The translations under genes and the position numbers were made by a program. From a virus (lineage: Duplodnaviria; Heunggongvirae; Uroviricota; Caudoviricetes): a DNA stretch of 64,000 nt. Below are positions 2,544 through 56,215 of the stretch, one piece after another; the first letter of the stretch is position 1; each line of letters begins with the position of its first letter. The stretch covers positions 67,521-131,520 of IMG/VR virus record IMGVR_UViG_3300035517_000267; one strand, 5' to 3'. The notes below the pieces were generated by a model. It made no database searches. It had not been told where the DNA came from and saw only the letters and a list, made by a program, of their open reading frames with translations.

Positions 2544-3840
2544 CGTGTTATCCTATGTTTCCATAGGTACTGACTATCTCTTACTCCGTGAGAAAAGAAT
2601 TTTATATCCTTTCTCACGGAGAATACCATTTCGGTTTTCAGATGCTTCGTTTCCTAAAACATCGCTGCGTACTAATAGCAGCCCTACTCCCAGTCTCACC
2701 CGGGATAGTCGATACGCACAAAAGTTAAAGTGTTACATTCTTCCATGTTTTATAGTTAATTATATCTCTAATCGTGGTAGTAGACACGGAGGGGTATAGA
2801 GTATATAATTCTTTATTTGTCATTCCTTGTTCATGTTTTTTCCGAATATATCTTACATCATCTTCTGTAAGTTTAGCTTTAGGATTTCTAGAACCAGAAG
2901 CCTTTAAAGAGCTATGCTTCTTTTTGTTTTCTTCTGTAAAGACTTCTGGCATTACAAGCTTATAACTACGACCATTATATACATTCCAAAAACTCATTTC
3001 ATTGGTATATCTATTCTTATAGTCCTTATAGACATCTTTCCAATATTCTCCATTGGCGTAGCGCTTCCTTAAATCTATAACCTCTTCATATGTTAATACA
3101 TTACCTTTATTACAAAACTGATTAGAAAATTCAGTATTATAAGGATAACATTCTACCGAGGGAGTTAGATTTGTATAAGTTTGATGGTTGTAGCACTTCC
3201 TAAAAGCTTCATAACTTATCTTATCGCTAAATTCTTCATATAAAAGATAAATTGGAATGTTTCTATGGTCTTTAATATATTGCGCTTCTTCTTGCGTCAA
3301 ACAAGCATTTGCATTATCACTTCCATATTTAGCTTTATCACCCATAGTATACATCCCACCCTTAGCTACATTATAGCCATTAGGGACTAAACTATTTTTT
3401 TCTTGAATTAACTTTATTTCCAGCTCAGAAGCTTCTTCAACGCTAATTCCTTCATAAAGAACTTCAAAGGTAAAATTCTCTTTACCATACTTTTGAATTG
3501 CGTTCGTAATAGCTTGACGTCTCTTTGGATCTCCTATTTTAGAACACTCATTCTGCCAACGCCTCTTGTAATTGTTGGTTATTCCAATATAAATTTTCCC
3601 ATTTATATTATTGGTTATTTGATATACATACATACTTCATTACTCCTTTACAGTTCATATTAGATGTACCCCTACATTAAATATGAAAGTCGGAATAAAC
3701 ACTTTAAACTTTTTTGGTCCGGGATTACCATGAGATAAAAATCTTTTAGGCTTCCCCGGTGCTATATAGGTATTATTTACTTACGAGTTGCCTCAGCCTA
3801 TATAACATTGCTAGTAAGCAATTAGGTATTTAGTAGCCTG
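2544..3840 (-). mobile_element. group I intron interrupting dnaE, carrying a GIY-YIG homing endonuclease gene
   Basis: The DnaE reading frame is broken: exon 1 ends ...DCSQQLV and exon 2 resumes ...IKIDLLSV, aligning to DnaE LLKFDFLGL. The intervening about 1.3 kb holds a free-standing GIY-YIG ORF, and the 3' intron segment (2548-2730) contains GACUA-type core sequence shared with the dnaB intron. Confidence 0.7.
2725..3633 (-). CDS. GIY-YIG homing endonuclease (I-TevI-like, with a C-terminal NUMOD/IENR-type DNA-binding region)
   Basis: MYVYQITNNINGKIYIGITNNYKRRWQNE and NGYNVAKGG form the GIY-YIG motifs. The C-terminal region is related to the second intron endonuclease (MPEVFTE... KTWK). 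Confidence 0.85.
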   Translation of the reverse strand: MYVYQITNNINGKIYIGITNNYKRRWQNECSKIGDPKRRQAITNAIQKYGKENFTFEVLYEGISVEEASELEIKLIQEKNSLVPNGYNVAKGGMYTMGDKAKYGSDNANACLTQEEAQYIKDHRNIPIYLLYEEFSDKISYEAFRKCYNHQTYTNLTPSVECYPYNTEFSNQFCNKGNVLTYEEVIDLRKRYANGEYWKDVYKDYKNRYTNEMSFWNVYNGRSYKLVMPEVFTEENKKKHSSLKASGSRNPKAKLTEDDVRYIRKKHEQGMTNKELYTLYPSVSTTTIRDIINYKTWKNVTL

Positions 3841-5675
3841 ACTAATTGTTGACTACAATCTTCGCTATCATGCAGATCAAACTGTGTTACAATGTCTCCA
3901 TTAGGCACTTTCATTAAGGCGGTTGATTTTGTAAAAGGTTCATCTACAAAAATAACTCCACCAGCGTGCTCTCCGACGCGACATACCAAGCCTTCTATCT
4001 TCTGTGCGACTTCCCAAACTTCAGGATAGTCATTAGTCATGGCATTAACAAAAGTGGGAATTGGTTTAAATCCTTTTTCTTCGTCTCCATAGAAACATTC
4101 TTTAAGTGTGCGGGTTTGCCCTCTATCAGCAGGAATAAGAGACGCAAGATAAAGACCTACATCACTATCTATGCCAAGTCCTCTCGCAGCCGTTTGGATT
4201 GCTGACTTACTTTTTTCAGTTCCAAAAGTAACTACATTAGCCACTCTATCTTGTCCATAAAAATCACGAAGATGTTGGAGCACTTGAGCACGCCTTCCTC
4301 CCTCTATATCGCTATCTATGTCGAGCACAGAAACACGCTCGGGATTCAAAAATCTCCATGAATAGCATTTTGTCTCTTCCCATAATGGATTTATCTGAAT
4401 AATATCGAGCACATATAGCAAGGCAAACCCAACTCCTGAACCACGACCAGGTCCAACTAGAGTTCCTGCATTCCAGCATTCTTCAATCGTCTTTTGAAGA
4501 TTTAAAAAATAAGCACTCCAATGTGTTTTATTTACTTCTGAACTTTTCCAAGTAATTTCAAGATTGCTATTAAGTTCGTCATAAGTTTCTTGATTTTGCA
4601 GTCGAGAGTCTTTCTTTAATTTATCTACAACTGCCCTTGCGAGAATACTATCTCCATCAAAGCTCGATTGAGCGAACGTCCGCAAATAAGGAATTTTTTC
4701 ATACCATTCTTCTTCAATTGTTTTTGTCTCAGGAATTTTCCAGATAAGAGAAGGAATTTTTAGAGGCTTCAAAAGGCTATAATCTTCGCAAGCATCTTTA
4801 ATTTTTCTTATATTCTCATAAGCTGTATTTAGCTGTATCTCTGTAAAATAATCAAAATAAAGCTCTATTTCAGTTGTATCCATTATATAAGTTGTAGCAT
4901 AAAAAGAATCAACTTCTCTTTCACCATCCTGAGAATTAAGAAAAGCTTTGTGAATCGGAGCATCTTCTCTTCGTGTATAGTGAGTATCTGTAGTTATGAT
5001 ATAAGGAATGTTGAGCGTAGAAGAAAGATTAAGAAGGAACTTATTAACTTCTATTTGTTCATCATTTCTGGAAGGCTGCATTTCAAAATAGAAATTACCT
5101 TCTCCAAACAAATGTACCATACTAGTACACCAGTTAATAATTTGTTCATAAACTGTTTCATCATCTGTTATAAGATATTCCAAGATATGTTGCGGAAGCC
5201 AGCCTCCTAGACACGCACTACTTCCTATTACGTTTCCTCTATCTTGTCCTATAATCTCTATAAGATCTTGGTAATAAGTGGGAACCCTCGTCATTCCTCT
5301 TGAAGAATAACTGCGTTCCCATGCTCTTGTTGAAAGTTCTCTTATCTGCTCATGTCCTCTAGCATTTTTTGCTAAAAGAATAAAGTGCCAATACTTATCT
5401 TGTCCAGCAATATAAGTTTCAGGAGATAACCCATCTCGGCAAAGATAAATTTCATTGCCTCTAATAACCTTAAAGTCTGGATGATCTTTCTTTACTTTGC
5501 TATAATACTTTTCAATTTTGACGGCATTACTTATAGTTTCATGCTCGGTAAACGCAATAACTTCATGCCCAAGCTCAATAGCTCGATCTATAGAAGATTC
5601 TATGGTTGAAATGGCGTCGCGTAAGCGCAAATTACTATAATCCGTGTGCCCATGCAATGAACCGGGATAACCCAA
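3822..5675 (-). CDS. dnaE: DNA polymerase III alpha (DnaE-type), 5' exon (PHP domain and N-terminal palm)
   Basis: LHGHTDYS... FTEHE is the PHP domain; NFYFEMQ and GFALLYVLDIIQINPL are DnaE-like. The frame closes at 3822 inside the intron. Confidence 0.8.
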   Translation of the reverse strand: MGYPGSLHGHTDYSNLRLRDAISTIESSIDRAIELGHEVIAFTEHETISNAVKIEKYYSKVKKDHPDFKVIRGNEIYLCRDGLSPETYIAGQDKYWHFILLAKNARGHEQIRELSTRAWERSYSSRGMTRVPTYYQDLIEIIGQDRGNVIGSSACLGGWLPQHILEYLITDDETVYEQIINWCTSMVHLFGEGNFYFEMQPSRNDEQIEVNKFLLNLSSTLNIPYIITTDTHYTRREDAPIHKAFLNSQDGEREVDSFYATTYIMDTTEIELYFDYFTEIQLNTAYENIRKIKDACEDYSLLKPLKIPSLIWKIPETKTIEEEWYEKIPYLRTFAQSSFDGDSILARAVVDKLKKDSRLQNQETYDELNSNLEITWKSSEVNKTHWSAYFLNLQKTIEECWNAGTLVGPGRGSGVGFALLYVLDIIQINPLWEETKCYSWRFLNPERVSVLDIDSDIEGGRRAQVLQHLRDFYGQDRVANVVTFGTEKSKSAIQTAARGLGIDSDVGLYLASLIPADRGQTRTLKECFYGDEEKGFKPIPTFVNAMTNDYPEVWEVAQKIEGLVCRVGEHAGGVIFVDEPFTKSTALMKVPNGDIVTQFDLHDSEDCSQQLVRLLNT

Positions 5676-15178: not shown

Positions 15179-15736
15179 TTAACCCTTTATAAGTTCTTCC
15201 AAGTCTGTAGCAATCAAGTCCATAAGCTCAGCTTGCTCGGGGGTACAATCGCTAACTTTTCGCCCCTTACCAAGATAACGCTCAATAATTGAGGTAATCT
15301 TAGCTGCGTTAGACTGATTTGCACTCATAAGATCTCCAATAAGATTCTGAATCTTTTCAGCAAGAGCCTGATAATCATATTCTTTTGGAGCTGCAAACTC
15401 AGCTCTTTCTGTAGTAATATACTTTCCATTTGTTGCTTTTGCTTCTGCATCAATTGCGGCATTAAGAGCATTAACAAGTGCATTATAAGAAAAATCTATT
15501 TCAGGAGCGATATATTTAAATCTACAGCCACAACGAACACTATTATCCTCAGACCTAAGTGTAAGAACAGGCTTATAGGTTCCATCAGGCATAGCTTTTG
15601 GATGAGCATAGGCTATTATATCACTCATATTTTCTATTATCGAAAGCGCAGAACTCTGCATAGAAGAACCAATCTGTTGATATTCAGTGCCATTCTGAGG
15701 TTTAATTGTTTTTTCTTTATCGTGACTTATAAACAC
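15179..15736 (-). CDS. probable 3' exon of an AAA_24/Sak4-like recombination ATPase
   Basis: RecA-fold continuation (DIIAYAHPK...) downstream of the P-loop ORF at 16927-17292, separated by a LAGLIDADG-containing insert. Confidence 0.4.
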   Translation of the reverse strand: MFISHDKEKTIKPQNGTEYQQIGSSMQSSALSIIENMSDIIAYAHPKAMPDGTYKPVLTLRSEDNSVRCGCRFKYIAPEIDFSYNALVNALNAAIDAEAKATNGKYITTERAEFAAPKEYDYQALAEKIQNLIGDLMSANQSNAAKITSIIERYLGKGRKVSDCTPEQAELMDLIATDLEELIKG

Positions 15737-16926
15737 AACAGCATATCCCAGCTGAGTTAAAGTCCTAAAAGTTTCCTCGAATTCCTTTTTATATTTTGCC
15801 CCAATAATGTTATCCTAAAGGCTTTTTATCCTCTAGTTCTTACGCTTACTTATTCGCGTAAGTTCAGCATAGCTTTTATCCCCAACACTTGGGGATTGTA
15901 GTCTCGTGGAGAACTATATCAATTAAAGTTTTTTATATCTATAATCTTTTGATATTTTTCTTTCTTTCTTGCCAGGAATAAAGAGTTATCGGTATATAAA
16001 TGCTTAAAGATTTCTTTAGAAGCATTTGTCGAATATTGTAAGATATATAATGTAGAAGTATTACGTTGAAAAGAGTGAACATTTACTTTTGGAATATCAT
16101 ATTCCTCATAAAAAAAGTCTACAATCCATTCAAGAATTTCTTTAGTTGCAGATGTAATCTGCCAACTCAAAGTATTATAATTATTAGAAAGAAGAGTTAT
16201 ACTCCCATCGCCATCAAAAAAACCTCTAATATAATCAATCCAATATTTTCTATCTAAGCTTAATGGTGGCTTTAGCTTAAAGGTTTTTTGTGGAATCACG
16301 CCATACTTGGCTAAATCTTTTTTATGTTGTTCGCTTGACCATTGAATTTTGCTAACTTGATAACCAGCTTGAGTAATATAATCTTTAACTTCGGACTTCA
16401 AACCAATTTCTTGACGAATCTTTTCAAGAATCTCTCTATCTACTGTACTCAAACTAAGTTTAACTACATTCCTATCTTTCTCAATGCTACCATCGGCAGC
16501 CAAAAAACCAACAAGCCAAGCCATATTATGATTTTCTTCGCTAAAATAATTCTGCTTTTCTAGCAGATTTCTGCCTTTATTCGCAGCTACAATAGCTTCA
16601 TGTCGATTTCTTAATTTATAACCATTCTTTTCTAAGACTTCTTTGAGTTGAGGCAAAGTTATTTTTGCAGCAGCCATTACTGCCGCTTGCCCTCTCCCAT
16701 TTTCAATATACTCCTTTAGAACAATTTTCTCTTGCTCTTCCGTAAATGAGTTTTTTGTATTCACACTGAACACACTCCTTAAAACTAAAACTTTAATTGT
16801 TTAATTTCTCTATGCGTTGCGCGTGTTAAAGCTTTTAGACTTTAACTTCCGCTCTGGTTAGCATTTCAGCTTTCCAGGTTTTTACTACAATTTTGATATG
16901 AATTACTTCATAAAAGACCAAGCATT
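15737..16926 (-). mobile_element. putative group I intron with a LAGLIDADG homing endonuclease inside the Sak4-like ATPase gene
   Basis: A Walker A/B N-terminal half and a C-terminal half are separated by 1.2 kb holding a double-motif LAGLIDADG ORF. The flanks contain GC-rich hairpins and an AGACUA element. Confidence 0.45.
15919..16773 (-). CDS. LAGLIDADG homing endonuclease (double-motif)
   Basis: LVGFLAADGS and IRGFFDGDGS motifs. Confidence 0.8.
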   Translation of the reverse strand: MFSVNTKNSFTEEQEKIVLKEYIENGRGQAAVMAAAKITLPQLKEVLEKNGYKLRNRHEAIVAANKGRNLLEKQNYFSEENHNMAWLVGFLAADGSIEKDRNVVKLSLSTVDREILEKIRQEIGLKSEVKDYITQAGYQVSKIQWSSEQHKKDLAKYGVIPQKTFKLKPPLSLDRKYWIDYIRGFFDGDGSITLLSNNYNTLSWQITSATKEILEWIVDFFYEEYDIPKVNVHSFQRNTSTLYILQYSTNASKEIFKHLYTDNSLFLARKKEKYQKIIDIKNFN

Positions 16927-17292
16927 TTAGCCATTATTCGACCATCCGCCGTCTCCAATGTTTTCTATCCCCAGCTGATTACAAACATATTTCTGACACA
17001 TATCAGCGGCTAGGTCTGCGGTATCAATTATAATGCTTTTATAAACTTCCTTAACCTCAGATTTCTTAAGCTCTCTAAGAACTTGCTTCATATCTCCCCA
17101 AGATGTGATATCTTGTACCATGACCCCAGGTAGTGCGTTGTAACCACGCTCGAATGCTAGTATCAAATGACCAGGCATCTGAGAACCAAAAGTCGTCTTA
17201 CCAATCTTTGCAGGTCCAAATAAAAAAGTAATATAGCCAGATAGATCGCGACTTACACTATGAGGCTGAATATTTAAAAGGTTGATAGCCAT
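16927..17292 (-). CDS. AAA_24/Sak4-like ATPase, 5' exon (Walker A and Walker B)
   Basis: GPAKIGKTT and SIIIDTAD motifs; the 121-aa ORF stops right after Walker B, which reads as truncated. Confidence 0.5.
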   Translation of the reverse strand: MAINLLNIQPHSVSRDLSGYITFLFGPAKIGKTTFGSQMPGHLILAFERGYNALPGVMVQDITSWGDMKQVLRELKKSEVKEVYKSIIIDTADLAADMCQKYVCNQLGIENIGDGGWSNNG

Positions 17293-18650: not shown

Positions 18651-18685
18651 TTTCTATATATATTATATCATTTTAATTAATTTTT
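18651..18685 (-). promoter_or_regulatory. conserved promoter copy
   Basis: Plus strand ttctatatatattatatcattttaattaattttt. Confidence 0.55.
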
Positions 18686-19474
18686 GTCAATGAATATAAA
18701 TTCCTTAGAATAAGGTAAAGATTGAGCAAATGAAATGAAATCTTTTGACCATTCTGTTAACTTGTGTTTTTGACGCTGATGTACCATAGAAAGAAGATTC
18801 TCATAATTCATAGTAATTGTACGAGTTTGAAGCCAGCTCATAGGCAACCATCTCACAAGCTCTTTCCAATACTTTTTCGCTTCAATAGGATTTTCGTCTT
18901 TAAGAAGTAAATATTTTTGACGAAGTTGTTCCAAGTCATTAATAAAATTGTCAACTCTAATCCCTACATTTATATCATCTATTAAAGGAAGTTCATTGTT
19001 ATAATTAGTAGTTTCAAAACAATCAATTGTAATAGGCTTAGAAGTAAGCTTGTGCATAGTTGAAGTACTATTAGCCACGGTGCCTATTTTATAGGTACTT
19101 GCTTCTTTCCACCAGTAAATTGGTGCTGTGATGTCAACAGTCACGAATATTTGTCTCAAAAACTTACGATGTTCACTACCAGCATTTATGAGATTTTGCG
19201 CTAACTTCATATCCTTTGGACCGATCGCCGCAAACTCCCAAATATCTTTATCATGGTGAAGAAGAATATTTTTCTCAATAGCCGCATAATCTTCATTGGT
19301 CATAGGAACATCTTCTCCATGATACGCAATCCACATTTCAGAAACAATATCAGGAATAGAATTGTATAAGCACATCCCAAAATTGCTATCGCTTAGATGC
19401 CAACTATTTTTAGGATTGCGCATACCCCGAAGAGCGTGTTCAAAATTATAGACTCTAATATTCTCAAATTTCAT
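18677..19474 (-). CDS. hypothetical protein
   Basis: 265-aa ORF, no recognisable motif. Confidence 0.4.
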   Translation of the reverse strand: MKFENIRVYNFEHALRGMRNPKNSWHLSDSNFGMCLYNSIPDIVSEMWIAYHGEDVPMTNEDYAAIEKNILLHHDKDIWEFAAIGPKDMKLAQNLINAGSEHRKFLRQIFVTVDITAPIYWWKEASTYKIGTVANSTSTMHKLTSKPITIDCFETTNYNNELPLIDDINVGIRVDNFINDLEQLRQKYLLLKDENPIEAKKYWKELVRWLPMSWLQTRTITMNYENLLSMVHQRQKHKLTEWSKDFISFAQSLPYSKEFIFIDKN

Positions 19475-19754: not shown

Positions 19755-20681
19755 TCACGCGCCTCCCGATGTTTTATTCATACCGCTTTGTTTTGTATCA
19801 TACAAATCTATATAATAAATTTCACGCTCATTAAGTTTATCTCTGGAAATTTCTTCCAAAACCTCAAAAGTAAAATTATTTAATCCATCTTTTTTCATAG
19901 CTTGGTAAAGTTTATTCGTAGCAGGAGCAGAAGATAAACCAGCCTTGATGTGTTGCCTAAACCTCTCTCGTATATCGACCGACTGACCAATATAAGATTG
20001 TCCACTAATTAAATCTGTTATTTTATATATACCAATTATCTTTCCACTTGTTTTAAACAAATGAGACATTAAGGTATCATAAGCAGTTTTATAATATACA
20101 TCCCAAATTAGTTTATCTATAGCTTCTTTATGGCATAGTCTTTTTTGCAAATCTCTTAATAAAGTTATATCATTAATATCTTCATCGCATATAGGCAATT
20201 TATAATAACTTTCATTAGCTTTTATTTCTTCTTCTCTTTTCTTTGCCTGAATATAAGCCAATTGCTTAGCTTTTAAATCTTCAACTTTTGCTTCTTCTTC
20301 TACAACTTTATTAAGACAATCTTGCAATCTTTCTTTATATTTTTTATTAAGTGACTGATATTCTTCATCAAGCGCGGCGACCGACGCCTCATAGGCTTCT
20401 TGAGCTTGCTTTATAGCGCCCTCCCGCATATCTTCTGCGGCTTTAGATAAAGAATTTAATATATTAGCTTGTGCCTCTACAGAATCTTTTACTTCATCAA
20501 GCTTTTGTTTGTCCTAATCTATTTCGGTTAAGAGCTGACTATGTTGTTGCTCTAAAAAATCATTTTCTTCTGCTATCTCTACATTAACTTTAATTATTTC
20601 TTGCTTAGTTTGTCTAAGCTTAATTACATAATATAAGAGAAAAACACTAATAAAAATTAAAAAAATAGTTACAAATATCAT
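19755..20681 (-). CDS. membrane-anchored coiled-coil protein with a C-terminal GIY-YIG nuclease domain; one in-frame TAG at about 20514
   Basis: C-terminal IIGIYKITDLISGQSYIGQS... GGA is a GIY-YIG domain. An upstream ATG at about 20681 opens a transmembrane helix in the same frame, interrupted only by the TAG. Confidence 0.45.
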
Positions 20682-28384: not shown

Positions 28385-28466
28385 CTTCTTTTTTTATTTA
28401 TTATAACATATTATAGATAAAAAGAAAAAGGGATTAATAGTAAAAACTACTAATCCCTTGTAATTA

Positions 28467-28781
28467 TTAAATACCTTCATCAAGATTTATGTTATCATTC
28501 TCTAGCTATTTCATTGCCATGTCATAAGTAATTCCACCTTGCGAATGATCGCTTTTTGCCATATTAAGATAAAACGAGCAAATAGTACCATAGGCACTCC
28601 AAGGTAGTCCTACTAAAGAAGTAATCCATGCTAAAGTACCAATATAACCTCGATAAACGCAGAAAAAAGCAAGTAATATTCCAGATAAAGTAACTATCCA
28701 AAGTAAAAGCCTTATATCTCGAATAATTTTCTTAGAATAATCAAGGCTTTCTATCTAATCTTTTACTTTTGCTTTTTTCAT
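28467..28781 (-). CDS. holin-like two-TM protein with in-frame TAG codons
   Basis: The ATG overlaps the amidase TGA stop (ATGA). Sequence MKKAKVKD[TAG]IESL... with two hydrophobic helices, then a second TAG 12 codons before TAA. It does not appear in the ORF track because the TAG at codon 9 splits it. Confidence 0.45.
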
Positions 28782-29533
28782 TTGCAAAACTTATCTTTAA
28801 AGCGCTGAAGAACAGTCATCATTTCTCCCCTTGTTAAAAACTTTTTGGGAGAAAGACGCCCATTCTCGTCTCCTTGTACTAAACCATTCTGCTGCGCCCA
28901 TTCCATCGCAGAAAGTTCCCAGGTGGAATCTTTTTTAGCTTGTTGTGCAAGATAAGTTTCAAGCATTTGATTAAAAGTTTCTTGCGTCATTTCTTCGTCA
29001 CCCTCTCCATTTAAACGCTTATTAACTTCCGCGGCAATTTGCCCATGGCGATTATAAAGCCAATCTCCAGGACAAGCTTTTTGCGCAAACCATCTATGAA
29101 CAGTCATGTTCTGTTTATCAACTTGTCCAATTAAACTCTTATCTCCTTGCCAAAGTAATTTTTTAATTCCATTACGTTGACAAATATCTACCAATAAATT
29201 AATCAAGCTGGCATAAGCCTCGTCTGATACTGGCCAAGGATCAGCTGCTATGCTATTAGCAACTTCAATGGTAATAGCCCTATTATCGTTGCTAGAACTA
29301 CTAGTACACCAACTTCTATTGGCTTCATCTACATATAAGGCTATTCTGCCATCGCTACCTATCCCATAATTGCTGCTTGCTTTATTTGAACTGTTGGCGA
29401 AAATAGCTCCACAACTTTCAACGGTTAGATTTCCTGCCATACAATGAATAGAAATTGTGTCAATTGTATGAGTACGCTTGCCGCTATTATTCGGAGATAA
29501 TTTGGTATAAGATACCAAAGAACTATTGCTCAA
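28778..29533 (-). CDS. endolysin: N-acetylmuramoyl-L-alanine amidase (Amidase_2/PGRP) with a C-terminal SLH-like cell-wall-binding domain
   Basis: N-terminal ISIHCMAG...GIGSDGRI amidase_2 pattern; C-terminal WELSAMEWAQQNGLVQGDENGRLSPKKFLTRGEMMTVL is SLH-like. Confidence 0.7.
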   Translation of the reverse strand: MSNSSLVSYTKLSPNNSGKRTHTIDTISIHCMAGNLTVESCGAIFANSSNKASSNYGIGSDGRIALYVDEANRSWCTSSSSNDNRAITIEVANSIAADPWPVSDEAYASLINLLVDICQRNGIKKLLWQGDKSLIGQVDKQNMTVHRWFAQKACPGDWLYNRHGQIAAEVNKRLNGEGDEEMTQETFNQMLETYLAQQAKKDSTWELSAMEWAQQNGLVQGDENGRLSPKKFLTRGEMMTVLQRFKDKFCK

Positions 29534-29539
29534 TTTTCC

Positions 29540-30799
29540 TCACCCTCTCATTAGTTCGGCACGCTCGGCAATCCTAGATCTATGACATTGCTTAAGCGTT
29601 ACTTCACCATAATAGCTTTGACCTCTAAATACTTTAGAAGCCTTAATTAATCCATTATTATTGTTTTTATAAACATCTAGATCAACTTGAGTGCGGTCAT
29701 CGCCTTCTATGATACAAATACAATTCTCTCCAATTCGTTGAAGAATAAGTTGCATTGTATCAATTGTAGTATTCTGAGCTTCCGTTACATAAACGCCAGC
29801 TCTAACATTTATATCCATTCCTCTACAATCAGAGACGGGAATCAGTTCAATTTTTCCTTCGTTAATTAATCTTTCAATAGCTTCAATTCCACCAAACTTT
29901 CCTACGAGGAAATTGCCAATTTGTGAATCAAGCAGTTTCGTATTTTTATCACCCGGATAAAATCCGAGCTTAACTGAGTCTCTAGTTGCTACAGGGTTGC
30001 AAAAAATTATAATTTTATCAATACGATTTTTCTCAAGTTGTTGAACGAGATAAGCCATGGCTATATATGACTTTCCACTTCCAGCTTTTCCACGAATAAT
30101 TGTGAATTGGTTATTAGATAAGCTATCAAACAAAAGCTTCTGATAAGGGTCATTCTTATAAGGCTTAACCTTCCCAAACCAGTTTGAATTAAAGTCCTCA
30201 TAATCAAGGTAATCATGACTACTACCTGACCATTTCCGCAAATCCAATATTTCACCATCAATACTTCGCAATATTAAATACTCACCTATCAAGAGGTTAA
30301 AGTGATTATAATTTATATCTTGGTAAAATTTGGTAAGAACCTCATCATTTGCATATATCTCTTTATAACCTGTATATTCATCATTATTTTGTGCGGCTTC
30401 TTCTATCATCCCATCTCCGAAAAACAGCTATGCAATATTCGCTAAAGAAAAATCATTAGTAACAAATATTACTTTATCAGGATGAATAAAATTATTCGCA
30501 TAAATGGCATCGCTTAATATCCTTGTATCATCTGTTATCGTGAGAAACTTTTCTCGAATGGTATTTTCCATATTTTCAGTATGAATTATTAAATCATACA
30601 ATTCTATATTTTCTCTAAGCCATTTAAGAATTTGTCTGGCTAAATATTTAGTATCAGAATCTTTTGTAGAAGAAACCTTTATTCTTTCCAATTCATTAAG
30701 CGTAATAGAAGAAATCATTATTTTTTCTTCTGGCATTTGTTCTCCCAAGGCTAAAAGAGCACTTGTGTCATAGAAACGAATGTCATGTTCCATAGTCAT
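29540..30799 (-). CDS. phoH: PIN-PhoH fusion ATPase (YlaK-like) with an in-frame TAG at the domain junction
   Basis: The PIN ORF (30428-30799) ends at TAG 30428-30430 and the PhoH ORF (GKAGSGKS) follows in the same frame six codons later. PIN-PhoH is a known single-polypeptide architecture. Confidence 0.7.
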
Positions 30800-31065
30800 C
30801 TTCCTCGTCCTCTATTATTCTAGTGTTAAAACCTATTACTCGCGTTTCCTCGGTCGAAGATTCTTCGGATAGTTCCTAAATTTCAACTCCATATCGCATT
30901 ATAGTAACGCTCATACGAGTTTTAATAAGTTCAACAAATGTACTAAAGATTTCAACAACACCTTCAATAAAAGTTAATCCGAAAGTGCCTATTAAAAATC
31001 CAAGAAGTAAATAATACAATAAAAATCACCTTCTCTAACTATTATTGAAAATGATTAACTAATAA

Positions 31066-31527
31066 TTAACTATTGTTGTCCTTTTCTCTAAATCTTTTAA
31101 CAGATTCAATGGCTTTTGTATGTCCATCAAGATAATTGCGGAGGCTCGCCTTCTCGCTCTTTATAGCAGACCTAAGGCTTCTAATATGAGACTCTGCTCT
31201 ATCTATATTCTGTTTAAATGCTCCAGTAGGATCAACTTCTGCGGGAATTTTAGCACCATATCCAAGAACTTCATCGTAATATCTTATTTTATTTTCATAT
31301 TTCTCTCTTGCCTTTTTAAGTTCATCCTCAAGAATACTAATTCTTGCTCTAGAAAGCGCTATGGTAAAACCAACTTTCTCAGAAAAGAAATTAGAATCTT
31401 CATCATGAATACAAGACATTCCAGAATAAACAAGACCATTATGTTTAATATAGACAATTACACAACCAACTTTTTCACTTACATCAACTTCAAAAGGTGT
31501 ATTATAAATAGATTTAATCAAATTCAT
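31066..31527 (-). CDS. hypothetical protein
   Basis: 153-aa ORF, no recognisable motif. Confidence 0.4.
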   Translation of the reverse strand: MNLIKSIYNTPFEVDVSEKVGCVIVYIKHNGLVYSGMSCIHDEDSNFFSEKVGFTIALSRARISILEDELKKAREKYENKIRYYDEVLGYGAKIPAEVDPTGAFKQNIDRAESHIRSLRSAIKSEKASLRNYLDGHTKAIESVKRFREKDNNS

Positions 31528-31626
31528 ATTTTTATTCTCCCTTATTTCTTATAATTTAATTATACTTAAAAATTTTTATTATGTCAATATTAGAAATGCC
31601 CTAGGCTTTTGACCTAGGGCTTCTAT

Positions 31627-39258: not shown

Positions 39259-39417
39259 ATCTTACCTCCTAGGGTATGGCGGCGGGGGACGGTACTGACC
39301 CGTCTTCCAAGCTTTTAGAGAGCCTTGCATTACCTTTATGCTACCCCGCATTTTCTAATTCTATTATACAGGAAAAATTTCATAAAGTCAAAAAAAAGAG
39401 AGGGTTTATTCCCTCTC

Positions 39418-47088: not shown

Positions 47089-47269
47089 TGGTAGTCGGTA
47101 CGGGATTCGAACCCGTGACTTCAGCGTTGGAACTAAAAATAAGATTTGAACTTACATCTTTGACCACTCTTCGTCTGAATAAAATCTTATTTCAAATTCA
47201 AAAAGTCAATATTTTTCTTTAAACTATTTTAGCGAAAGGCTGATGACTTAACCTCTTGTCGAACCGACC
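47089..47269 (-). tRNA. tRNA-Glu (UUC) gene interrupted in the anticodon loop by a 106-nt tRNA-like insert (47128-47233)
   Basis: 5' half GGTCGGTTCGACAAGAGGTTAAGTCATCAGC-CTTTC, and 3' half AC-GCTGAAGTCACGGGTTCGAATCCCGTACCGACTACCA. Acceptor (7 bp), D arm, anticodon stem TCAGC/GCTGA, a 4-nt variable loop, canonical T loop TTCGAAT and CCA are all present. The predicted spliced loop CTTTCAC reads UUC. Confidence 0.55.
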
Positions 47270-47687: not shown

Positions 47688-47774
47688 TGGTGCGAGCGGC
47701 GGGACTCGAACCCGCACGTCCTTGTGGACACGAGATTTTAAGTCTCGGGTGTCTACCACTTCCACCACGCTCGC
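47688..47774 (-). tRNA. tRNA-Leu (UAA), type II
   Basis: GCGAGCGTGGTGGAAGTGGTAGACACCCGAGACTTAAAATCTCGTGTCCACAAGGACGTGCGGGTTCGAGTCCCGCCGCTCGCACCA; anticodon loop CTTAAAA; long variable arm; CCA encoded. Confidence 0.8.
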
Positions 47775-48387
47775 TTATATTTTATGAAAGACCCCTTCGG
47801 GTTGCTATCTGTTCAATCGTAGCTATATTCAGTCAATAGGGAGACAAGAGTGTGCCTAGAGGAGCTACCTCTAAACAGCTTGCCCCAGCTTAGAGCCAAG
47901 TCCCATGGGAGATTGGTTACTCCCAACTTTCACCCACCATTCACATCTTGTATCTGTTAAAACCATTAACATAAAAATTTGATGTAATCTTGGCAGACCA
48001 TTTGGGCTACTCGTACTGTGACCTTATCTTATACACCGATTTCTCGGCTTCAACTGCCAAGTTCCTTAGTGACATTCCAAGGTTTGCAAAAACTGTCACA
48101 TTTTTACCTAACTTGGATTCTTCTCCACAGGAGCGTCTATTGCGGAACCGATAAGACCATACTTTTAACTGCGATTGTGATAGTGCCTTTCTTCCTACAG
48201 AGCTAAAGTTCTTTAGCCTCAACCCAACCTCACGAATTGAGCCGATACAAGATTGCTAGGGTATCCTCTAGTACCTTGCTACTTACGGAAGAAGCCTCAG
48301 CACAATGGCGTTTGTCTACACTGAGTTCTTTCATAATATTTTGTCATTCTTATTTATGTATAGATGGAGAATAACAAAACCACCTTT

Positions 48388-48461
48388 GGCAGTCCCTACT
48401 CGTGACGATCGAGTACCCTCTGATTCAAAGTCAGATGTGCAGTCCGCTACACCAAGGGACT
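48388..48461 (-). tRNA. tRNA-Gln (UUG)
   Basis: AGTCCCTTGGTGTAGCGGACTGCACATCTGACTTTGAATCAGAGGGTACTCGATCGTCACGAGTAGGGACTGCCA. Perfect 7-bp acceptor, anticodon loop CTTTGAA, CCA encoded; the T loop ATCGTCA is non-canonical. Confidence 0.6.
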
Positions 48462-48917: not shown

Positions 48918-51053
48918 TCATTCAAAATCTTCTCCTTCCAATTCTTCAATTCCACCTTCTTCTTCCATAGATTCTTTATCAGTTATATATATCATAATAG
49001 GTTCATCTATGTCATAGAAAGTTAATGTATCATTTTCATAATCTATAGAATAATGTTCCTCTGAAAGTTGCTCCTTAAGAGGTAAGCCTATCTCATACCA
49101 TATATAAGGTAACTTTCCAATTAAAGGACTAGCTTTTAAGAACTCAAAATCACATTCACTTAACTTATTTCCTTGATAAATAAAAGAATTATTTTCCATT
49201 TTTTGGATACCAGTGTCTCCATTTTCATCTAAGAAATATTTTCCATCATCAAGCTCAAATATTACGCCTAATATTCCACCAACCATTTTATCAAGTGTAT
49301 AATAAACAGGAATAAGTTTAAGATTAACTGAATTGCTCATTTCACTTAAGCGATAAATAGAATCATCATATTCTTTTCTAGCAAATGACGTTGTAGTTAA
49401 TGCTCCAAAAATTTCAACAAGCTAAACCACAATATTAAAACGAGATTCTCCATTTATGGTTGTATACATTACATAATTACCATCGCCAATATTAGAATTA
49501 AACTCAATCTCATTTGTTTCTTCATTTTGAGTCATGTTTATATAGATTTCTTGGACTTCTGGTCTTGGACACTCCTAATAAGTAGCTATATACATACCAT
49601 TTTTTCTAGTAGAAAGTTTACAATATCCTTTATAAATATTCCATTCTGCGTGGACTTCATCATCTAAAAGCCAAGGTGCTACCCATATAGTATTACCTCT
49701 ATAAACATTACTAGGACACGTTGTAATAGAATTTTCTTCTTCGCCTTCTATTATTGAACCTTCTTCGCCAAAATCAAAAACTAATCCATTTTGACAGCCA
49801 TATCTGCCAGAAACACACAAAAATTCATTTTCATATTCAAATATTTTTGCTTTTGCTTCATTGTCATATTCATCTTCATTTTCTTCGTTTCTAATAGTTA
49901 ATGCAGCATTGTAAATCTTTAAGGGTCTACTCTGAGTAGCTTTTTCATTATCAGTAACTGCATATACTTCAAAATAAGCGCCTTCTGTATACAAAGCTGC
50001 TAAAACATACAAAAGAATAATTCCAATAGTAGAATTATCAGAATCTTTATAATCAAAAAGTTTGTCTATAGACTCAACTAATGAAACTTCTCCCATAACA
50101 AATGAAGTCAGTTGGTTAGGTTCATAAGTACCATTTAATCCACCAAAAATAGCATAAATGGCTTGATAAACTGTATTAACAATAAAATTTATTAAACCTT
50201 CATTTCCATTGTTAAGGTCATTAAAATCTAAACTATTAACGACAGTAACTACAGTATTAATAATACCATTCCAAGTGGTATTGCAAATAGGAAATAATTG
50301 GTTAATGAATTCCGCAAGAGAAGGAACATCTTTCAATTGTTTAATAGCAGCAATAAGATTATCAATCAGTTCTAATCCATCTTTTACTAAAGGAGCATAC
50401 CAAACTTCATCTGGGTCTTGTTCCGCAAGTTCTTCTAATATGTCCTTAACGGCATTACTTTCCCAAGCTTCTTCAATATCATCTATTAAAGTAACGATTT
50501 GAGAAACGTCAATTTCTGGAAAATATCTTAAACAAATGTCTGATATAACATCTGCGGGAACCCTGATATGTAGAGTATACTTAGGATACCTAATCTTAGC
50601 CTTAGCTCCTGCTATTATCATCTAGTTGAAGTAAGTAAAGAAGTCAGGGGAAAATACATCTTTCACCTAACTAACGAAACTGACTATTTCCTTATAAAGA
50701 TAAGAGTACGCTAAATCATCTATATCAGTATCACTTGCATCTTCTCCAGCTTCTTCTTCTACCTTCTTTTCAATATCGTTAATCATTTGCTTGTAATTAG
50801 CTATAGTTTTTAATACATCCTAAAATTTAATATTATTATCAAAATAACTATGATTTTCAATAGTAATACTAGGATTTGTTCCAACTCCAAGATCGTCAAC
50901 ATCATCCATTACAAACTTAAAGGTAGGCGTAGGATTAACATCATGCAAACTAAAAACAGCATCTTCTCCCGTATCAGTGGGTAGTTTAACCGAATCTATT
51001 TCATTATAAGTAATAGTGTTACCCAATGAGTTTTTTAAACTAATATTAACCAT
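48918..51053 (-). CDS. late structural protein of about 711 codons read through five in-frame TAG codons; function unknown
   Basis: ORFs 50820-51053, 49575-50621 and 48918-49340 share one frame and are separated only by TAG codons, near 50820, 50667, 50622, 49575 and 49422. There is one start with AAAGGAG 9 nt upstream of the ATG at 51053, and one terminal TGA at 48918. Confidence 0.65.
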
Positions 51054-51055
51054 TA

Positions 51056-52093
51056 TTATTCATCTCCTTTAAGTGTAATCGTAGAATCTTCTTGCTCAAG
51101 ATTGTCGGCAGAAGAAATGTTATAAGTAGTTCCATCAACATTTACATTTGATATATTGTATTCAAACTCACATACTATTTCACCATTTTCAAGAGTAAAA
51201 GGAAATCTACATCTAAAATAGGAAATATCCTGTAAAGTATTTGCAGTAGAATCGCTAAATCTAGTAAAATAATTGCTTTTATCTATATCACTTAATACTA
51301 CTGCGTTTTGTAAAGTGTCAATAACTTGCTTCCAAGCAGTTTCTTCGTCTTGGAGAGCAGAAAACTAAACGTCTTGTGGAACTTTAACTCCACAAAAATA
51401 AACACCATAATTTATAATTATATTATTTAAAAAATCTTTTTCTGCCAAAATTAGTTTTCCTAAATTGTTTAATAAATCTGGGATGACAGAATTTTCAGCC
51501 CTTGCCAATATTCCTAAATATTCGTTATAGGAAATATTGTCAGTTTGGTTAGCCATAACAGTTTCGTTATAACTGTCTATATTTAGCCTTGTATAAATGG
51601 TTATTTTATCATAACTAGGGGAAATAAAGGCGGCTCCCGCACGTCCCCAAGTATTAAACTATGAAGTACGAGAAACATAATCATCAGGAATTGGTGCTAC
51701 TACTATATCTCCTGTTGCATAAGTACCTTGTTTTATTGCTATTTGAGAAGAGAGAGAGGGAGTTATTATCTCTCCCTCTTCTACCACAAGCTACCTTTTT
51801 GATTCTTGTTTGCCCGAAGTCGCGGTAATTAAACCAGTATCACTAACTGTAATAACAGGTTCAGGGCAAAGAACATTAACAGTAGCTTGTTTAAAACCAA
51901 CTAAACCTTCGCTAGGAGTTAAAGTATAAGTGCCATTATCCGTATATGTTTCTTTTACAGAATCATTTAATAATTCTTCTGAATAATAAGGAGCGAAGGT
52001 TTGCTGAGAGCTATCGGTTGGGACTAAAACTTCTTTGATTCCCTCGAAAGAAACACCTTCACCCGATTTATTTAATAAATATACTTGTGGCAT
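51056..52093 (-). CDS. late protein(s) with three in-frame TAG codons and an apparent +1 frame change near 51720
   Basis: MPQVYLL... ends at a TAG (51791) and stays open for 35 codons. An overlapping +1 frame (…YATGDIVVAPIPDDYVSRTS[TAG]FNTWGRAG...) runs into MANQTDN... (51556), crosses another TAG at 51365, and ends at the TAA at about 51056. A frameshift, a sequencing indel, or two overlapping genes are all possible. Confidence 0.35.
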
Positions 52094-52165
52094 TTTAACC
52101 CAGCCTTTCAGGATTTAGTTTCTGTTTGCACCTTTATTTCATCTTCAAAGGAAATATCAACTATT

Positions 52166-52759
52166 TTAGTCATCAGTAAAATCTCCTTCTATATCTTCTT
52201 CAAAATTAATAGTAAAACTTAAATCATTAGCGGGAAATCTTAATTGCATAGCATGAGCCGTTGTAATAGAATTGGCAAGCTAGTTAGCATATATTAAAGT
52301 AGTTCCTTGATATAAAGCTATAGCATCTATAACGCCCCAGCCACCTTGATCCACAACGTCGTCTGTAGAATTATTTATATTGTCAGCAGAACCATCATCA
52401 ATCTCAGGGAAAAGAAGGTCATAGGCATTTATAACGGTTGCCTCTGAACCAGTATGTTTTAAAACTAAATAATTTCCAGATTCATAACTTGATTTAAGGT
52501 TCTTAGCTGTGGTTCCAGTGCCTTCAACGTCATCACTGTAAACTAAAATTTGTCTTTTTACATATTGTCTTGTATCAGAGACTTTATCTATCTTGTCTTG
52601 ATGTTCTTCGGGAAGGTGACTCTTGATAGAATCAACGCTTATTTTTATAAATTTATTTTCATCTTCGGCATCTTCATCCCAGTAACCTAATTCAATATAA
52701 AAAGTTCCGTTACTAAAAATTTTATCCCAAAGCGTCTCTTTACCTTTGGTAGTTATCAT
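52166..52759 (-). CDS. late protein with one in-frame TAG
   Basis: Strong ribosome-binding site AAGGAGGAAGAATAATTATG; TAG at 52280-52282; the frame continues for 37 codons to a TAA. Confidence 0.55.
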
Positions 52760-52761
52760 AA

Positions 52762-53208
52762 TTATTCTTCCTCCTTAGTTACTTCTTGCAATTTAATTTT
52801 AATGCCTTTTTTAGGAGAGCTAGAATAAGCATTTAGTTTTATTAAATGATTTTGTCCTAAAGAAACAGGGCTATTAAATTTAATAGCATACATTGCAACT
52901 CCATCTGCTTTATTAGTAGAATTTTCTCCATTTTCTAAGATATATCTACCATCATAAAACATTAAACCATCTACTGCTACATTCCCGGAACTTTTATTTT
53001 CGTTAAATAAAACCGAGCCAGTAGTTTTCCATTCAAGGTTAGATGTATCAAGTGAGCAAGATATTGACTTATTTCTCGTTGTTCCATTATCATCCAGGCT
53101 GGTAATTCTGTTCATACCGCTTTCTTCACCCTAGCCAAGAGCAATATACTAAGTACCATTGGAAAATAAAGAACTCATAATTAAGCCTAAAAAGGTTTTT
53201 GTGACCAT
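52762..53208 (-). CDS. late protein with two in-frame TAG codons near the N-terminus
   Basis: AAGGAGGA ribosome-binding site 7 nt upstream of the ATG at 53206-53208. Sequence MVTKTFLGLIMSSLFSNGT[TAG]YIALG[TAG]GEESGMNRITS...; terminal TAA. Confidence 0.55.
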
Positions 53209-53226
53209 GTTTAAATCCTCCTTGGA

Positions 53227-55480
53227 TTATCTTATTGCTGTAGCGCTTTCAGTAGCGCTATAATCATATATTTGTTTTATTTTTAAAGCATAGTCAGACT
53301 ATACCGGATCTATCCAATCAATGTCTAGCTTTAAAACTCCATCATTCGCATCATAGGAATATACTTGATAGATTTTTAAAGTATCATCTATTTGTACTGG
53401 ATCGATCCAATCAGACGGCTCAGTCTACTCTACTTCTACTTCAATATCATTAACAAATGTTAAAGAATTTTGGACATTTACTATGCTAGTTTGCGGATAT
53501 ATGCACACACAATTTGCATCATTAATAAAATTTATAGAAGAGCTTAAAGCCTCACTATAATCTTTTTGCTCTGCAATATATAAAAGACAATTATTTGAAA
53601 AGTTTAAAACTAAAGATGAATCCTATTTATAATCTTGTTGACTTACTGTATGTAACCTACAATTATTTATAAATTGTGTTTTTGAATCTAAGATTGAACT
53701 ACAATCTTTCCAACTAGCTATATATAAATTATAATTATTTAAGAAGTTTAAGTCTGATTTGAGATTTTCTTTTTGTTCTTGATTACTTATAAGCTATAAT
53801 CTGCGGACGCCGGTAGTATGTAGCGACATATCTTGTTTTGAAGATTGTTCATTCTCGTATATTAGCTTCGCCTAAGCGTTTGCCGCAAACTCCAAGCTAC
53901 TTTCTCCATTATATGTACAATCTACTGTTACAATAGAAAAATCTAAAATAGTAAGAAAATAAGAGTTCAAGAATTGTGTACAAGCTTTACTAGCCAAGTC
54001 CGCACAATTATCAGAAACCAAAGTAGCTCCCAATGAAAGAGTTGAATTTATCGAATTTATTAAATTATTCTAATTATCACTCTTATATACATCTGCTATT
54101 CTATAATTTTTTTGAACTTGAACATTATTTTCAAAACTATCTTTTAAATCTTCTTCTGCTATTAATTGCGCATTAGCTTTTTTAACAATCTAAGCTGTAT
54201 TTTGCAAACTTGCTTCATTTGTTTTAGGAGAAACTAATGCCAATCTTAATCCTAAACTGGTAAAACCTAAAGATTCTTTAAGGTTCGTTGTAGAGATCTC
54301 TCCTGGCATAACAAGAGTTGCATCAAAGTCTTTTTGAACCTTTAACTTTGGAGATTCCAAATTAGCATCAAGGTACCTAGGCTCTATATTAGTGCCACTA
54401 TAATCTTTTTTAATCTAAAAATTTGAGGTTGTATCAAAAAATTTTAAAAAGTCAACTTGACGTATGTCAAGTAGTTTCGCAGACCTTCGTGTATAGAAAT
54501 TATAGGTATCTTTAATGCTCGAAGGAAACGAATGTCTAGTACAATTTAAGGCAAGACTTTTTCTTTTTATTTTAAAAGTATAAGTGTCATTTGATTCTGG
54601 GACAAGGTTTTCTCTGTCTACATTAACCGCAAAATTTTTCCGATGTAATTTATAAGTGTAAGAGTCATTTGATTTTGGAACAAGATTTTCTCTAGATAAA
54701 TCAATAGCTTTATCAAATCTTTTCAAATAATAGGCATAACTATCTGTAAGAGAAAGACCTTTTCTAGTAATATCTTGTGCCCTTGTGCGCCTTCGACCTA
54801 GCAGCGTCCGCACATTTTTATCCTTTAGAAAAAGTCCTTTTCTTTCCAAATTTTTAGCTTTAGTTTTTCGTAAAATCTTAAAACTATCTTTAGTTTTAGA
54901 ATTACTGTTAAATAATTCCAAATTACTTGCATTGCCATCGCGTTTTATAACAAAAGAAAATTTAGCTTTATTTGAGCCTTCTTGATTAGCAAGATTTATT
55001 GCAGTAAAACTTCTTTTAAACTAAAAATTGTCTTGTATATCAGCATTAATATCTCCATCTATACAAACGGTTGCATTTAAGCTATAGATAGGAATAACCG
55101 TATTAGATGTATTAATACTGTTATTATATATTAATAAATCTTCTGCGCGAGTTGAATTCTAAGTCTAAGCAAATGAAAAAAACTCTTCATCGAATGTTTT
55201 TCCTGGGATAATATGAACTATATTATAAGTATTTTGCGGACGCACGCTTACTGATTGTGACACATCTTGGTCTATAGAGCATTTCGCCATACTCTATAGC
55301 CTTATGTCATTAATAGAAATAATATTAGTTTTTTCATCTGCTTTTGTCGGCAGCTAAGTTGTACAATGTAATCGTACATTCATACTAGCCGCAACTGAAT
55401 TATCTCCTATTAATTCTGGCTATTCGTTCTAGATAGTTACGAATGTAAGTCCAGCCGCATTATCAAACTAGGTTGTAGCT
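53227..55480 (-). CDS. large TAG-rich late protein (tail-fibre or tail-like, with DWIDPV and ENLVPxSNDxYTxK repeats); start not resolved
   Basis: ORF 54415-54921 ends in TAG and shares a frame with the TAA at 53227. The 1.3 kb between has no ORF of 60 codons or more in any frame under the standard code, and in-frame TAGs were confirmed at 53299 and 53425. Confidence 0.45.
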
Positions 55481-55558
55481 TTATAGTTTCCTTTTAATAC
55501 AATTGATTTTTCGTTTAGAGGAAGTAATTGATAATATAATAATAAATATTTTTGTTTA

Positions 55559-56215
55559 TTATCCATTTGAGACATCCCTACTTACGCAAGACCATTTGCC
55601 TTCTCCCAACGCTATTCCAACTATTTCATGAAAAGCATTTTGCGTAGTAGCGGCTAGATGACCCACTAGTCCAATTGTATTTTCTTCTAATCCTCCTATA
55701 GCAATAGTAATATAGCTAGATTGAGGTATTGTATAAGATATATAAAACATATCCCCCAGCGTTTTCGCAGGAGGAATTGTAAAGGCAGTTATATCAGTTA
55801 AAGTGCCTAATATATATACATTATTTGCTTTAATAATTCCATCAGATGGCAATGAAGTGTTTACAGTCATGCCAGGCGGAATTGTAGTGTCAGTATATTC
55901 TTTCGCTTGTTTTAAAACATTATTGATTGAGCCTTCTGTATCCTCAGAACCATTTAAAGTATTAATATTCTAAATTATATCTGCGGCGACCTCGGTATGT
56001 GAATCGATCCAGCTTGATACTTCTTTCAATGTATCAAGCGTTTCGGGCGCACCATCAACCACCGCCGCAATTTTTTCATTTACTAATGCTTCTATATCAT
56101 CTGTTGATATATGCTCGGATACAATTTCTTTTATTTGTTCAACAGCTTCTTCTCTTGGTAGGAAATCTTTCGCATCAATGTATTTTTTAGCAAGAGTATA
56201 AGTTGTAAAATCCAT
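55559..56215 (-). CDS. late protein read through one TAG (ORFs 55970-56215 and 55559-55870 fused)
   Basis: TAG at 55970-55972; 33 in-frame codons link to the MTVNTS... ORF; terminal TAA. Confidence 0.55.

Follow-up and report, generated by a model that had tools for sequence, protein, structure and literature searches.

The window analyzed here is a 64,000-nucleotide stretch of viral DNA (positions 67,521 to 131,520 of the IMG/VR record IMGVR_UViG_3300035517_000267, Caudoviricetes), and our subject is a pair of open reading frames (ORFs) in it that encode a PIN ribonuclease domain and a PhoH ATPase domain and that appear to be a single gene interrupted by an in-frame TAG. This part of the window has its genes exclusively on the minus strand. 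The PIN ORF (30799 to 30428) has 123 codons, its stop being a TAG at plus-strand coordinates 30428-30430; six codons follow in the same frame (CTG TTT TTC GGA GAT GGG, encoding LFFGDG), and then the 289-codon PhoH ORF, from an ATG at 30409-30407 to a TGA at 29542-29540. A first-pass annotation, made from the letters of the window and without database searches, had proposed that the two ORFs are joined by readthrough of the TAG into one PIN-PhoH protein, and both the arrangement that it described and the junction peptide that it quoted, FSLANIA[TAG]LFFGDGMIEEAAQ, agree exactly with the sequence. The coding sequence that results when the TAG is translated starts with the ATG at 30799, an alternative ATG at 30793 being possible, and is listed with its parts and neighbors in Table 1.

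With the TAG translated, the Pfam family PIN_4 (PF13638) scored 46.1 bits against a cutoff of 21.9 and reached the TAG codon itself (residues 21-124), and PhoH (PF02562) scored 114.4 bits against a cutoff of 27 (residues 218-413). The acidic active-site residues of the PIN domain (Asp-11, Glu-38, Asp-91, and Asp-116) are all present and form invariant columns in the homolog alignments, Asp-11 lying just upstream of the Pfam span; the Walker A motif (GKAGSGKS) and the Walker B region (VYVTEAQN) are also intact. The full-length phage family phrog_2765 aligned with residues 10-417 in a single stretch (profile positions 7-442 of 443, E = 7.8e-71), and the NCBIfam PhoH2 model (NF053827, RNA 5'-3' helicase PhoH2) aligned with residues 80-412, again in one stretch, at a score that did not reach the equivalog cutoff (68.5 versus 680 bits). 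By sequence, the PhoH domain is matched by the PhoH structure PDB 3B85 (E = 1.7e-18). As a proxy for the window protein, we made an AlphaFold model of a 62%-identical homolog (P0002; mean pLDDT 86.9). In this model, Asn-123, the equivalent of codon 124, lies directly after the last PIN helix with a pLDDT of ~93, and the chain runs through LFFG into a β-rich middle domain and then into a P-loop domain that superposes on 3B85 (target TM 0.81).

Table 1. The PIN-PhoH gene, its parts, and other features discussed in the text (window coordinates)
Feature	Coordinates	Strand	Remarks
PIN-PhoH coding sequence (PhoH2/YlaK-type)	29540..30799	-	419 codons; TAG = codon 124; TGA stop
PIN_4 domain	30428..30739	-	residues 21-124
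In-frame TAG, codon 124	30428..30430	-	directly after last PIN helix; variable polar column
LFFGDG and Met-131	30407..30427	-	family-conserved internal residues
PhoH P-loop ATPase/helicase domain	29561..30148	-	residues 218-413; Walker A and Walker B region
Terminator-like hairpin closing upstream Band_7 unit, just before promoter	31598..31620	-	ends the Band_7 gene
Sigma-70-type promoter, TTGACA-N17-TATAAT	31559..31587	-	12/12 match; head of cassette
orf153, first gene of unit	31066..31527	-	conserved in 41 relatives
tm78, one predicted transmembrane helix and acidic tail	30783..31019	-	TAG 30876-30878 = codon 48
Endolysin (Amidase_2 and SLH)	28778..29533	-	TTG start 6 nt after PhoH TGA
Holin-like ORF, 104 codons, two predicted transmembrane helices	28467..28781	-	TAGs 28755-28757 and 28506-28508
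Intrinsic-terminator-like hairpin, end of unit	28428..28459	-	14-bp stem and T run
tRNA with CUA anticodon (amber suppressor)	39277..39350	-	ARAGORN; Rfam tRNA, 41.4 bits with relaxed speed filters
TAG-rich block of tail-fiber-like and orphan genes	48918..56215	-	28 in-frame TAGs

A search of 5.8 billion proteins returned 1948 homologs, the best of which are single proteins of 410-428 amino acids with PIN_4 followed by PhoH (52-62% identity, 98-100% coverage), and more than 100 relatives with 45-62% identity encode a single polypeptide of ~418 amino acids. The sole split ("PhoH-only") entry among the homologs is the window's own sequence as called with the standard code by the Joint Genome Institute (JGI). 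As the first-pass annotation had suggested, we aligned the translation with family proteins across the junction, where it is continuous: the window sequence FVTNDFSLANIA[TAG]LFFGDGMIEE corresponds to the consensus FVTNDLSLKxIANLFFGxxMIES, 39 homologs align at this point without a gap, Phe-127 is nearly invariant, and Met-131, the apparent start of the PhoH ORF, is a consensus residue. Because LFFGxxM is conserved in the homologs, the six "spacer" codons and the "start" Met are ordinary internal residues. Further, scans of metagenomes and GTDB genomes with the homolog alignment gave ~124 orthologous loci, and none of these has a stop at codon 124 or carries PIN and PhoH as separate adjacent genes, the arrangement that the first-pass annotation had named as the one that would speak against a fusion. 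Its claims that PIN and PhoH form a single polypeptide here and that homology supports readthrough of the TAG are thus borne out by collinear homologs and by the absence of a stop at codon 124 from the orthologs. We conclude from this comparison that the PIN and PhoH ORFs are in all likelihood one PhoH2/YlaK-type gene, interrupted only by a TAG that is read through.

If the TAG were instead a genuine stop, the locus would contain two genes, a recent pseudogene, or a sequencing or assembly error. Standard-code calling does give two ORFs, which the public JGI annotation of the window's sequence lists separately, and the second ORF is preceded by a Shine-Dalgarno-like motif, the GGAG located 5 nt before the ATG at 30409, which weighs against a strictly single product in that some independent initiation of a PhoH-only protein is possible. 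This GGAG comes from the Gly-Asp codons GGA GAT, and the six "intergenic" codons to which they belong are conserved protein sequence. The 295 codons 3' of the TAG are open with their motifs complete; the genome has a tRNA(CUA) and needs TAG readthrough in many conserved genes; and the ~124 orthologous loci offer no relative with separate PIN and PhoH genes. Moreover, a separately deposited JGI contig (L007; 99.976% identity over 8188 nt), which may share the window's sample, keeps the TAG, which argues against a one-off sequencing error. A genuine stop is, in our view, extremely unlikely.

The tRNA(CUA) of the window has a U1-C72 mismatch, G73, U33, A37, and an encoded CCA. Next to it, an Rfam search found neither a theta or HDV-like ribozyme nor a member of another Rfam family. 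At none of the loci retrieved did a suppressor tRNA turn up in the 8 kb around the ortholog, a result of little weight given that the window's own tRNA is 8.5 kb away from PIN-PhoH. That TAG is a sense codon genome-wide is shown by the TAG-rich block listed in Table 1, in which 16 of the 28 TAGs fall in one 782-codon ORF (53227-55575, minus strand) and make up 36% of its Gln-type codons. The gyrB, gyrA, ligase, helicase, and primase genes and the DNA polymerase III exons of the window have no TAG. In-frame TAGs are also common in the PIN-PhoH orthologs, where 121-132 of them occupy 46 distinct alignment columns across the ~124 loci from related contigs, with essentially no internal TAA or TGA. 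The syntenic relative L009 has PIN-PhoH as a single gene with a TAG at codon 161, and the relative L008 has a TAG at codon 49; both are already shown as Gln in database proteins. Six of the seven Gln-majority columns of the alignment contain TAG, and the five strictly conserved Gln columns (Gln-220, Gln-293, Gln-342 of the EAQN motif, Gln-354, and Gln-371) hold 49 of the ortholog TAGs. The other TAG columns are variable, with majority residues that are mostly Glu, Lys, Gln, Leu, Ser, Tyr, and Trp, one-step mutational neighbors of TAG. Because many ortholog TAGs fall at conserved Gln columns, TAG evidently stands for Gln in the clade to which the window belongs.

The distribution of the ortholog TAGs also bears on whether the TAG at codon 124 serves a purpose of its own, as part of a programmed gene with two outputs: a free 123-residue PIN RNase made early, possibly together with a PhoH-only protein reinitiated at the ATG at 30409, and the fusion made later, with the position of the TAG under selection. 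The TAG lies right after the last PIN helix, and the 123-residue product would have all four acidic residues; the in-frame ATG is preceded, at a distance of 5 nt, by the Shine-Dalgarno-like GGAG; and suppression is seldom complete, so some truncated product is likely. Yet codon 124 is TAG in none of the orthologs, and the ortholog TAGs, scattered over the 46 columns, are commonest at conserved PhoH Gln codons or lie deep in PIN (as at codon 49 of L008), where truncation would be useless. In addition, LFFG, including the nearly invariant Phe-127 after the TAG, appears to be part of a folded unit, and the GGAG and ATG encode the conserved Gly-Asp and Met. A TAG switch selected at the domain boundary was dropped as our principal interpretation on account of the scatter of the ortholog TAGs and their absence from codon 124, and we consider such a two-output gene unlikely.

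Whether Gln is also the residue inserted in the window genome itself can be judged from fewer positions. The column of codon 124 contains Asn in 62 orthologs, Arg in 27, Lys in 15, Ser in 6, Gly in 5, His in 2, and Gln in 2, and the holin-like ORF has Lys, Glu, or Gln in the column of its TAG codon 9 and Glu, Gln, Asp, or Asn in that of its TAG codon 92; Gln is thus among the ortholog residues at each of the window's three best-sampled TAG columns. Three points weigh against a firm assignment: the TAG column of tm78 has only Asn and Thr in the relatives; the alignable TAGs of the window all stand in variable polar columns, with which Gln is compatible, not proven, for this genome; and the 782-codon ORF with its 16 TAGs has no homolog at E <= 1e-5 among the 5.8 billion proteins and no PHROG match and so provides no test of what TAG means. 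A different residue in this phage, with the TAG still read through, would fit the position of these TAGs off the invariant Gln columns, the predominance of Asn at codon 124, and the U1 and G73 of the suppressor tRNA, which are also features of bacterial tRNA-Asn. The syntenic relatives, however, carry TAG at invariant Gln columns, Gln is seen in each of the window's best-sampled columns, and all documented TAG-recoded phage lineages use Gln (PMC9523058, PMC10607447, bioRxiv 10.1101/2021.08.26.457843). We therefore regard a residue other than Gln as very unlikely and Gln as most likely the residue inserted at codon 124.

The predicted protein shares with PhoH2/YlaK (COG1875) the order of the two domains, the length, the four PIN acidic residues, and the Walker A and B motifs, and it aligns collinearly over its full length with the profile of phage PhoH2 (phrog_2765, which includes proteins of Tsamsa-group Bacillus phages and of Geobacillus virus E3). 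It differs from the PhoH2 proteins of cultured phages, which are large phages of Firmicutes, in being only 35-38% identical to them (tblastn against INPHARED; best match 37.7%). Because of this low identity, and because the NCBIfam equivalog cutoff was not reached, the protein is best described as a divergent member of the PhoH2/YlaK architecture and not as an equivalog. The first-pass annotation had spoken of "YlaK/PhoL-family" proteins, a label that merges two groups; YlaK was apt, PhoH2/YlaK being the proper name, and PhoL was not. PhoH proteins of the PhoL/YbeZ type are not known to have a PIN domain. A scan of IMG/VR with the single protein gave only distant PhoH-only proteins (26-31% identity) and no close relative, and blastn of the region against INPHARED gave only short endolysin segments, so that these INPHARED searches, tblastn included, yielded no close relative with a name. 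The window gene differs from known PhoH2/YlaK genes further in its internal amber codon and in its position between a gene for a small transmembrane protein and an endolysin gene.

This position is part of a lysis-type operon that runs, in order, from a promoter through orf153, tm78 (with a TAG), PIN-PhoH (with a TAG), the endolysin gene, and the holin-like ORF (with TAGs) to a terminator, so that three genes of the operon carry TAG. The window has two perfect TTGACA-N17-TATAAT promoters, both on the coding strand, versus 0.10 expected by chance, and of 96 relatives, 16 have a promoter matching at 11 or more of the 12 positions at a distance of 700-900 nt upstream of PIN-PhoH, versus 2 of 96 in a control region. 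The second perfect promoter of the window is at 18662-18690 (minus strand), upstream of a gene that starts at 18629. The tm78 protein has a predicted transmembrane helix at its N terminus and an acidic tail (EDEEDDYG); the 3' end of its gene overlaps the start of PIN-PhoH by 17 nt, and at least 22 relatives have a conserved tm78 ahead of PIN-PhoH, in which conservation continues beyond the position of the TAG (...TRVIGF.T...EEDDYG). The endolysin matches endolysin PHROGs from residue 1, and its SLH domain suggests a host with an S-layer. Its TGA is overlapped by the ATG of the holin-like ORF (ATGA), which is conserved in 75 relatives and whose C-terminal motif, IN(L/T)D(E/Y)GI, is located after a TAG in the window and in the relatives L009 and L020. 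No PHROG or Pfam family was found for the holin-like ORF or for tm78; we call the former a candidate holin on the grounds of its position, its predicted transmembrane helices, and its conservation. The gene order in L009 is Band_7, a 151-residue ORF, PIN-PhoH, an Amidase and SLH endolysin, gyrB, gyrA, ligase, and GIY-YIG.

The first-pass annotation had described PIN-PhoH as "not a late gene," which is probably wrong. PIN-PhoH is separated by 6 nt from the start of the endolysin gene and shares its unit with the holin-like gene, and the tolerance of TAG across the clade matches that of the lysis genes and not that of the neighboring replication genes. Per 1000 aligned amino acids, TAGs number 0 in GyrB (40,677 amino acids) and GyrA (37,580 amino acids), as well as in orf161 (AAA_33), Band_7, RNA ligase, and NAD ligase; 0.08 in Metallophos, 0.11 in RNase H, and 2.0 in orf153; 2.6 in PIN-PhoH, where 46 of 124 loci have a TAG, and 4.3 in the endolysin; and 8.3 in NAGPA-SPOR and 20 in GIY-YIG. 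In the loci with at least one TAG in PIN-PhoH, TAG accounts for 132 of 568 Gln-type codons of that gene versus 0 of 660 in the gyrase genes of the same contigs; the Fisher p value of ~6e-49 for this difference is an indication only, because the orthologous loci are not phylogenetically independent and the test overstates significance. Judged by codon content, PIN-PhoH thus groups with the lysis genes in its tolerance of TAG and not with the adjoining replication genes, and because it lies in a promoter-to-terminator unit with an endolysin and a holin-like gene and tolerates TAG clade-wide, we conclude that it is probably a late gene. Apart from the non-independence of the loci, several observations temper this conclusion. 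The endolysin gene of the window itself has no TAG; 35 relatives with clearly recoded neighboring genes have no TAG in PIN-PhoH, which means that TAG is tolerated there and not required; and a consensus sigma-70 promoter might fire early, the assignment as late drawing on gene context and codon usage.

Taken together, we consider it very likely that the window comes from a gut phage that uses genetic code 15 (TAG as Gln) in some of its genes and that has one 419-residue PhoH2/YlaK gene, in which UAG at codon 124 is decoded by the phage's own tRNA(CUA). The phage-borne tRNA would insert a residue, most likely Gln, at codon 124, and translation would continue across LFFGDGM to the end of the protein. 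The product would begin with a PIN RNase, continue with a β-rich middle region, and end in a PhoH P-loop RNA helicase/ATPase, and by analogy with mycobacterial PhoH2, it may unwind and cleave RNA. The coupling of a PIN RNase to an RNA helicase has been described in bacteria and phages (PMC7390352, PMC5499597), and ATP-dependent unwinding and cleavage of RNA are known for the mycobacterial PhoH2 only (PMC7390352). Before the suppressor tRNA is present, UAG would terminate translation, and the full-length protein would be made only after the code switch. We infer the timing of expression, the RNase/helicase activity, and the identity of the inserted residue as Gln in this genome from the comparisons above. 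A gating of late and lysis genes by recoding has already been proposed for recoded phages (bioRxiv 10.1101/2021.08.26.457843).

The window as a whole is best explained as a stretch of a large gut phage that infects a Firmicutes-type host. Many of the orthologous contigs (L010-L131) are 140-150 kb long (e.g. 147,085, 147,056, 148,301, and 147,446), and several of the contigs were binned into metagenome-assembled genomes labeled Firmicutes, "Mollicutes," and in some cases even "Bacteroides." In all probability, they represent entire phage genomes from a single large clade, misbinned as bacterial. With the code-15 gut phages already described (crAss-like, Lak, Agate/Garnet/Amethyst/Topaz, and Phassvirus), the window shares a phage tRNA(CUA) and the fragmentation of genes under standard-code calling, and both the window and its relatives show the same division, in which TAG occurs in structural, lysis, and homing-endonuclease genes and the replication genes keep to the standard code. 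The likeness to the named clades is one of features, the best protein match in INPHARED being the 37.7% identity given above. Borges et al. described large gut phages of Firmicutes (e.g. Agate, 154 +/- 27 kb) in which the structural and lysis modules use the alternative code, replication uses the standard code, and homing endonucleases are strongly recoded (bioRxiv 10.1101/2021.08.26.457843). Recoding of TAG to Gln in lysis and structural genes of gut phages has been published (PMC9523058, PMC10607447, bioRxiv 10.1101/2021.08.26.457843), and Table 2 of the Phassvirus study lists a "PhoH family ribonuclease" among the ORFs that differ from genome to genome in suppressor-TAG content (PMC10607447). 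Such recoding of TAG to Gln is therefore already known for late genes of gut phages, and the gene in the window is an ordinary case of it. To our knowledge, the conserved placement of PIN-PhoH in a lysis cassette and its membership, clade-wide, of the TAG-permissive class have not been described before.

Several other elements of the window and its relatives may be recorded here. Three relatives have an insert in their PIN-PhoH ortholog near residue 280, in the GFYPG region, measuring ~0.3 kb in L129 (8001-9544), ~1.3 kb in L125 (8001-10530), and ~5 kb in L131 (3720-9953); the inserts may be introns, inteins, or mobile elements. Two genes of the window are also split. In the AAA_24 ATPase gene (15179-17292, minus strand), the segment 16927-17292 corresponds to profile positions 4-103 of 195 and the segment 15179-15922 to positions 105-186 of 195. 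Between the two segments lies an ORF for a LAGLIDADG_3 homing endonuclease (15919-16773). The arrangement looks like an intron with a homing endonuclease, and the 5' end of the second piece shows three "in-frame TAGs" that probably belong to noncoding sequence. In the DNA polymerase III alpha gene (543-5675, minus strand), a GIY-YIG endonuclease ORF (2725-3633) separates the PHP and NTPase part (3822-5675) from the finger and HHH_6 part (543-2552), and this looks like a second intron with a homing endonuclease, here within a replication gene. The most recoded family of the neighborhood is represented by a free-standing GIY-YIG protein whose N-terminal region is of the transmembrane/coiled-coil kind (19755-20681, minus strand, in the window; 13670-14572 in L009), with 1 TAG in the window and 17 in the L009 ortholog; this heavy recoding agrees with that reported for homing endonucleases. 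The window also encodes a full-length ROOL RNA (47772-48349, minus strand; Rfam RF03087, 322 bits, model positions 1-574 of 574), flanked by tRNA-Leu(UAA) (47688-47774) and tRNA-Gln(UUG) (48387-48461). At 47131-47233 (minus strand), there is a 103-nt Rfam tRNA match (40.5 bits) that ARAGORN did not report, possibly a tRNA interrupted by an insertion or intron.

For annotation, the consequence is that the standard code splits a conserved gene in two because the TAG is called as a stop, and this split has already entered the public JGI annotation. PIN-PhoH provides a clean internal control showing that the window genome should be annotated with code 15. The partition of TAG over more than 100 related contigs offers, in addition, a proxy for expression class that needs nothing but sequence: the neighbors of PIN-PhoH form two classes, one of gyrase, RNase H, and phosphoesterase genes, in which TAG is at or near zero, and one of PIN-PhoH, endolysin, holin-like, and homing-endonuclease genes, which often carry it.

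We offer, as a tentative possibility that we hold to be rather less than even, that PhoH2 is a conserved part of the lysis cassette in a large clade of gut phages of Firmicutes, that amber codons gate its translation as they do for the lysis proteins, which would make it a late-acting function in RNA degradation with selection against its being expressed too soon, and that tm78 might be a PhoAT-like partner or inhibitor. In mycobacteria, phoAT is co-transcribed with phoH2, and PhoAT binds PhoH2 (PMC7390352). Like phoAT, tm78 is a short, conserved, overlapping gene directly upstream of the PhoH2 gene, a likeness of position only, and unlike PhoAT, its product has a predicted transmembrane helix, an acidic tail, and no detected family; in the window genome, this tail also needs TAG readthrough. 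The placement of a phage PhoH2 with lysis genes is a usable hint to the role of phage phoH genes, and if PhoH2 is indeed an amber-gated member of the lysis cassette, this would give a concrete timing and context to phage phoH genes that have long been unexplained.

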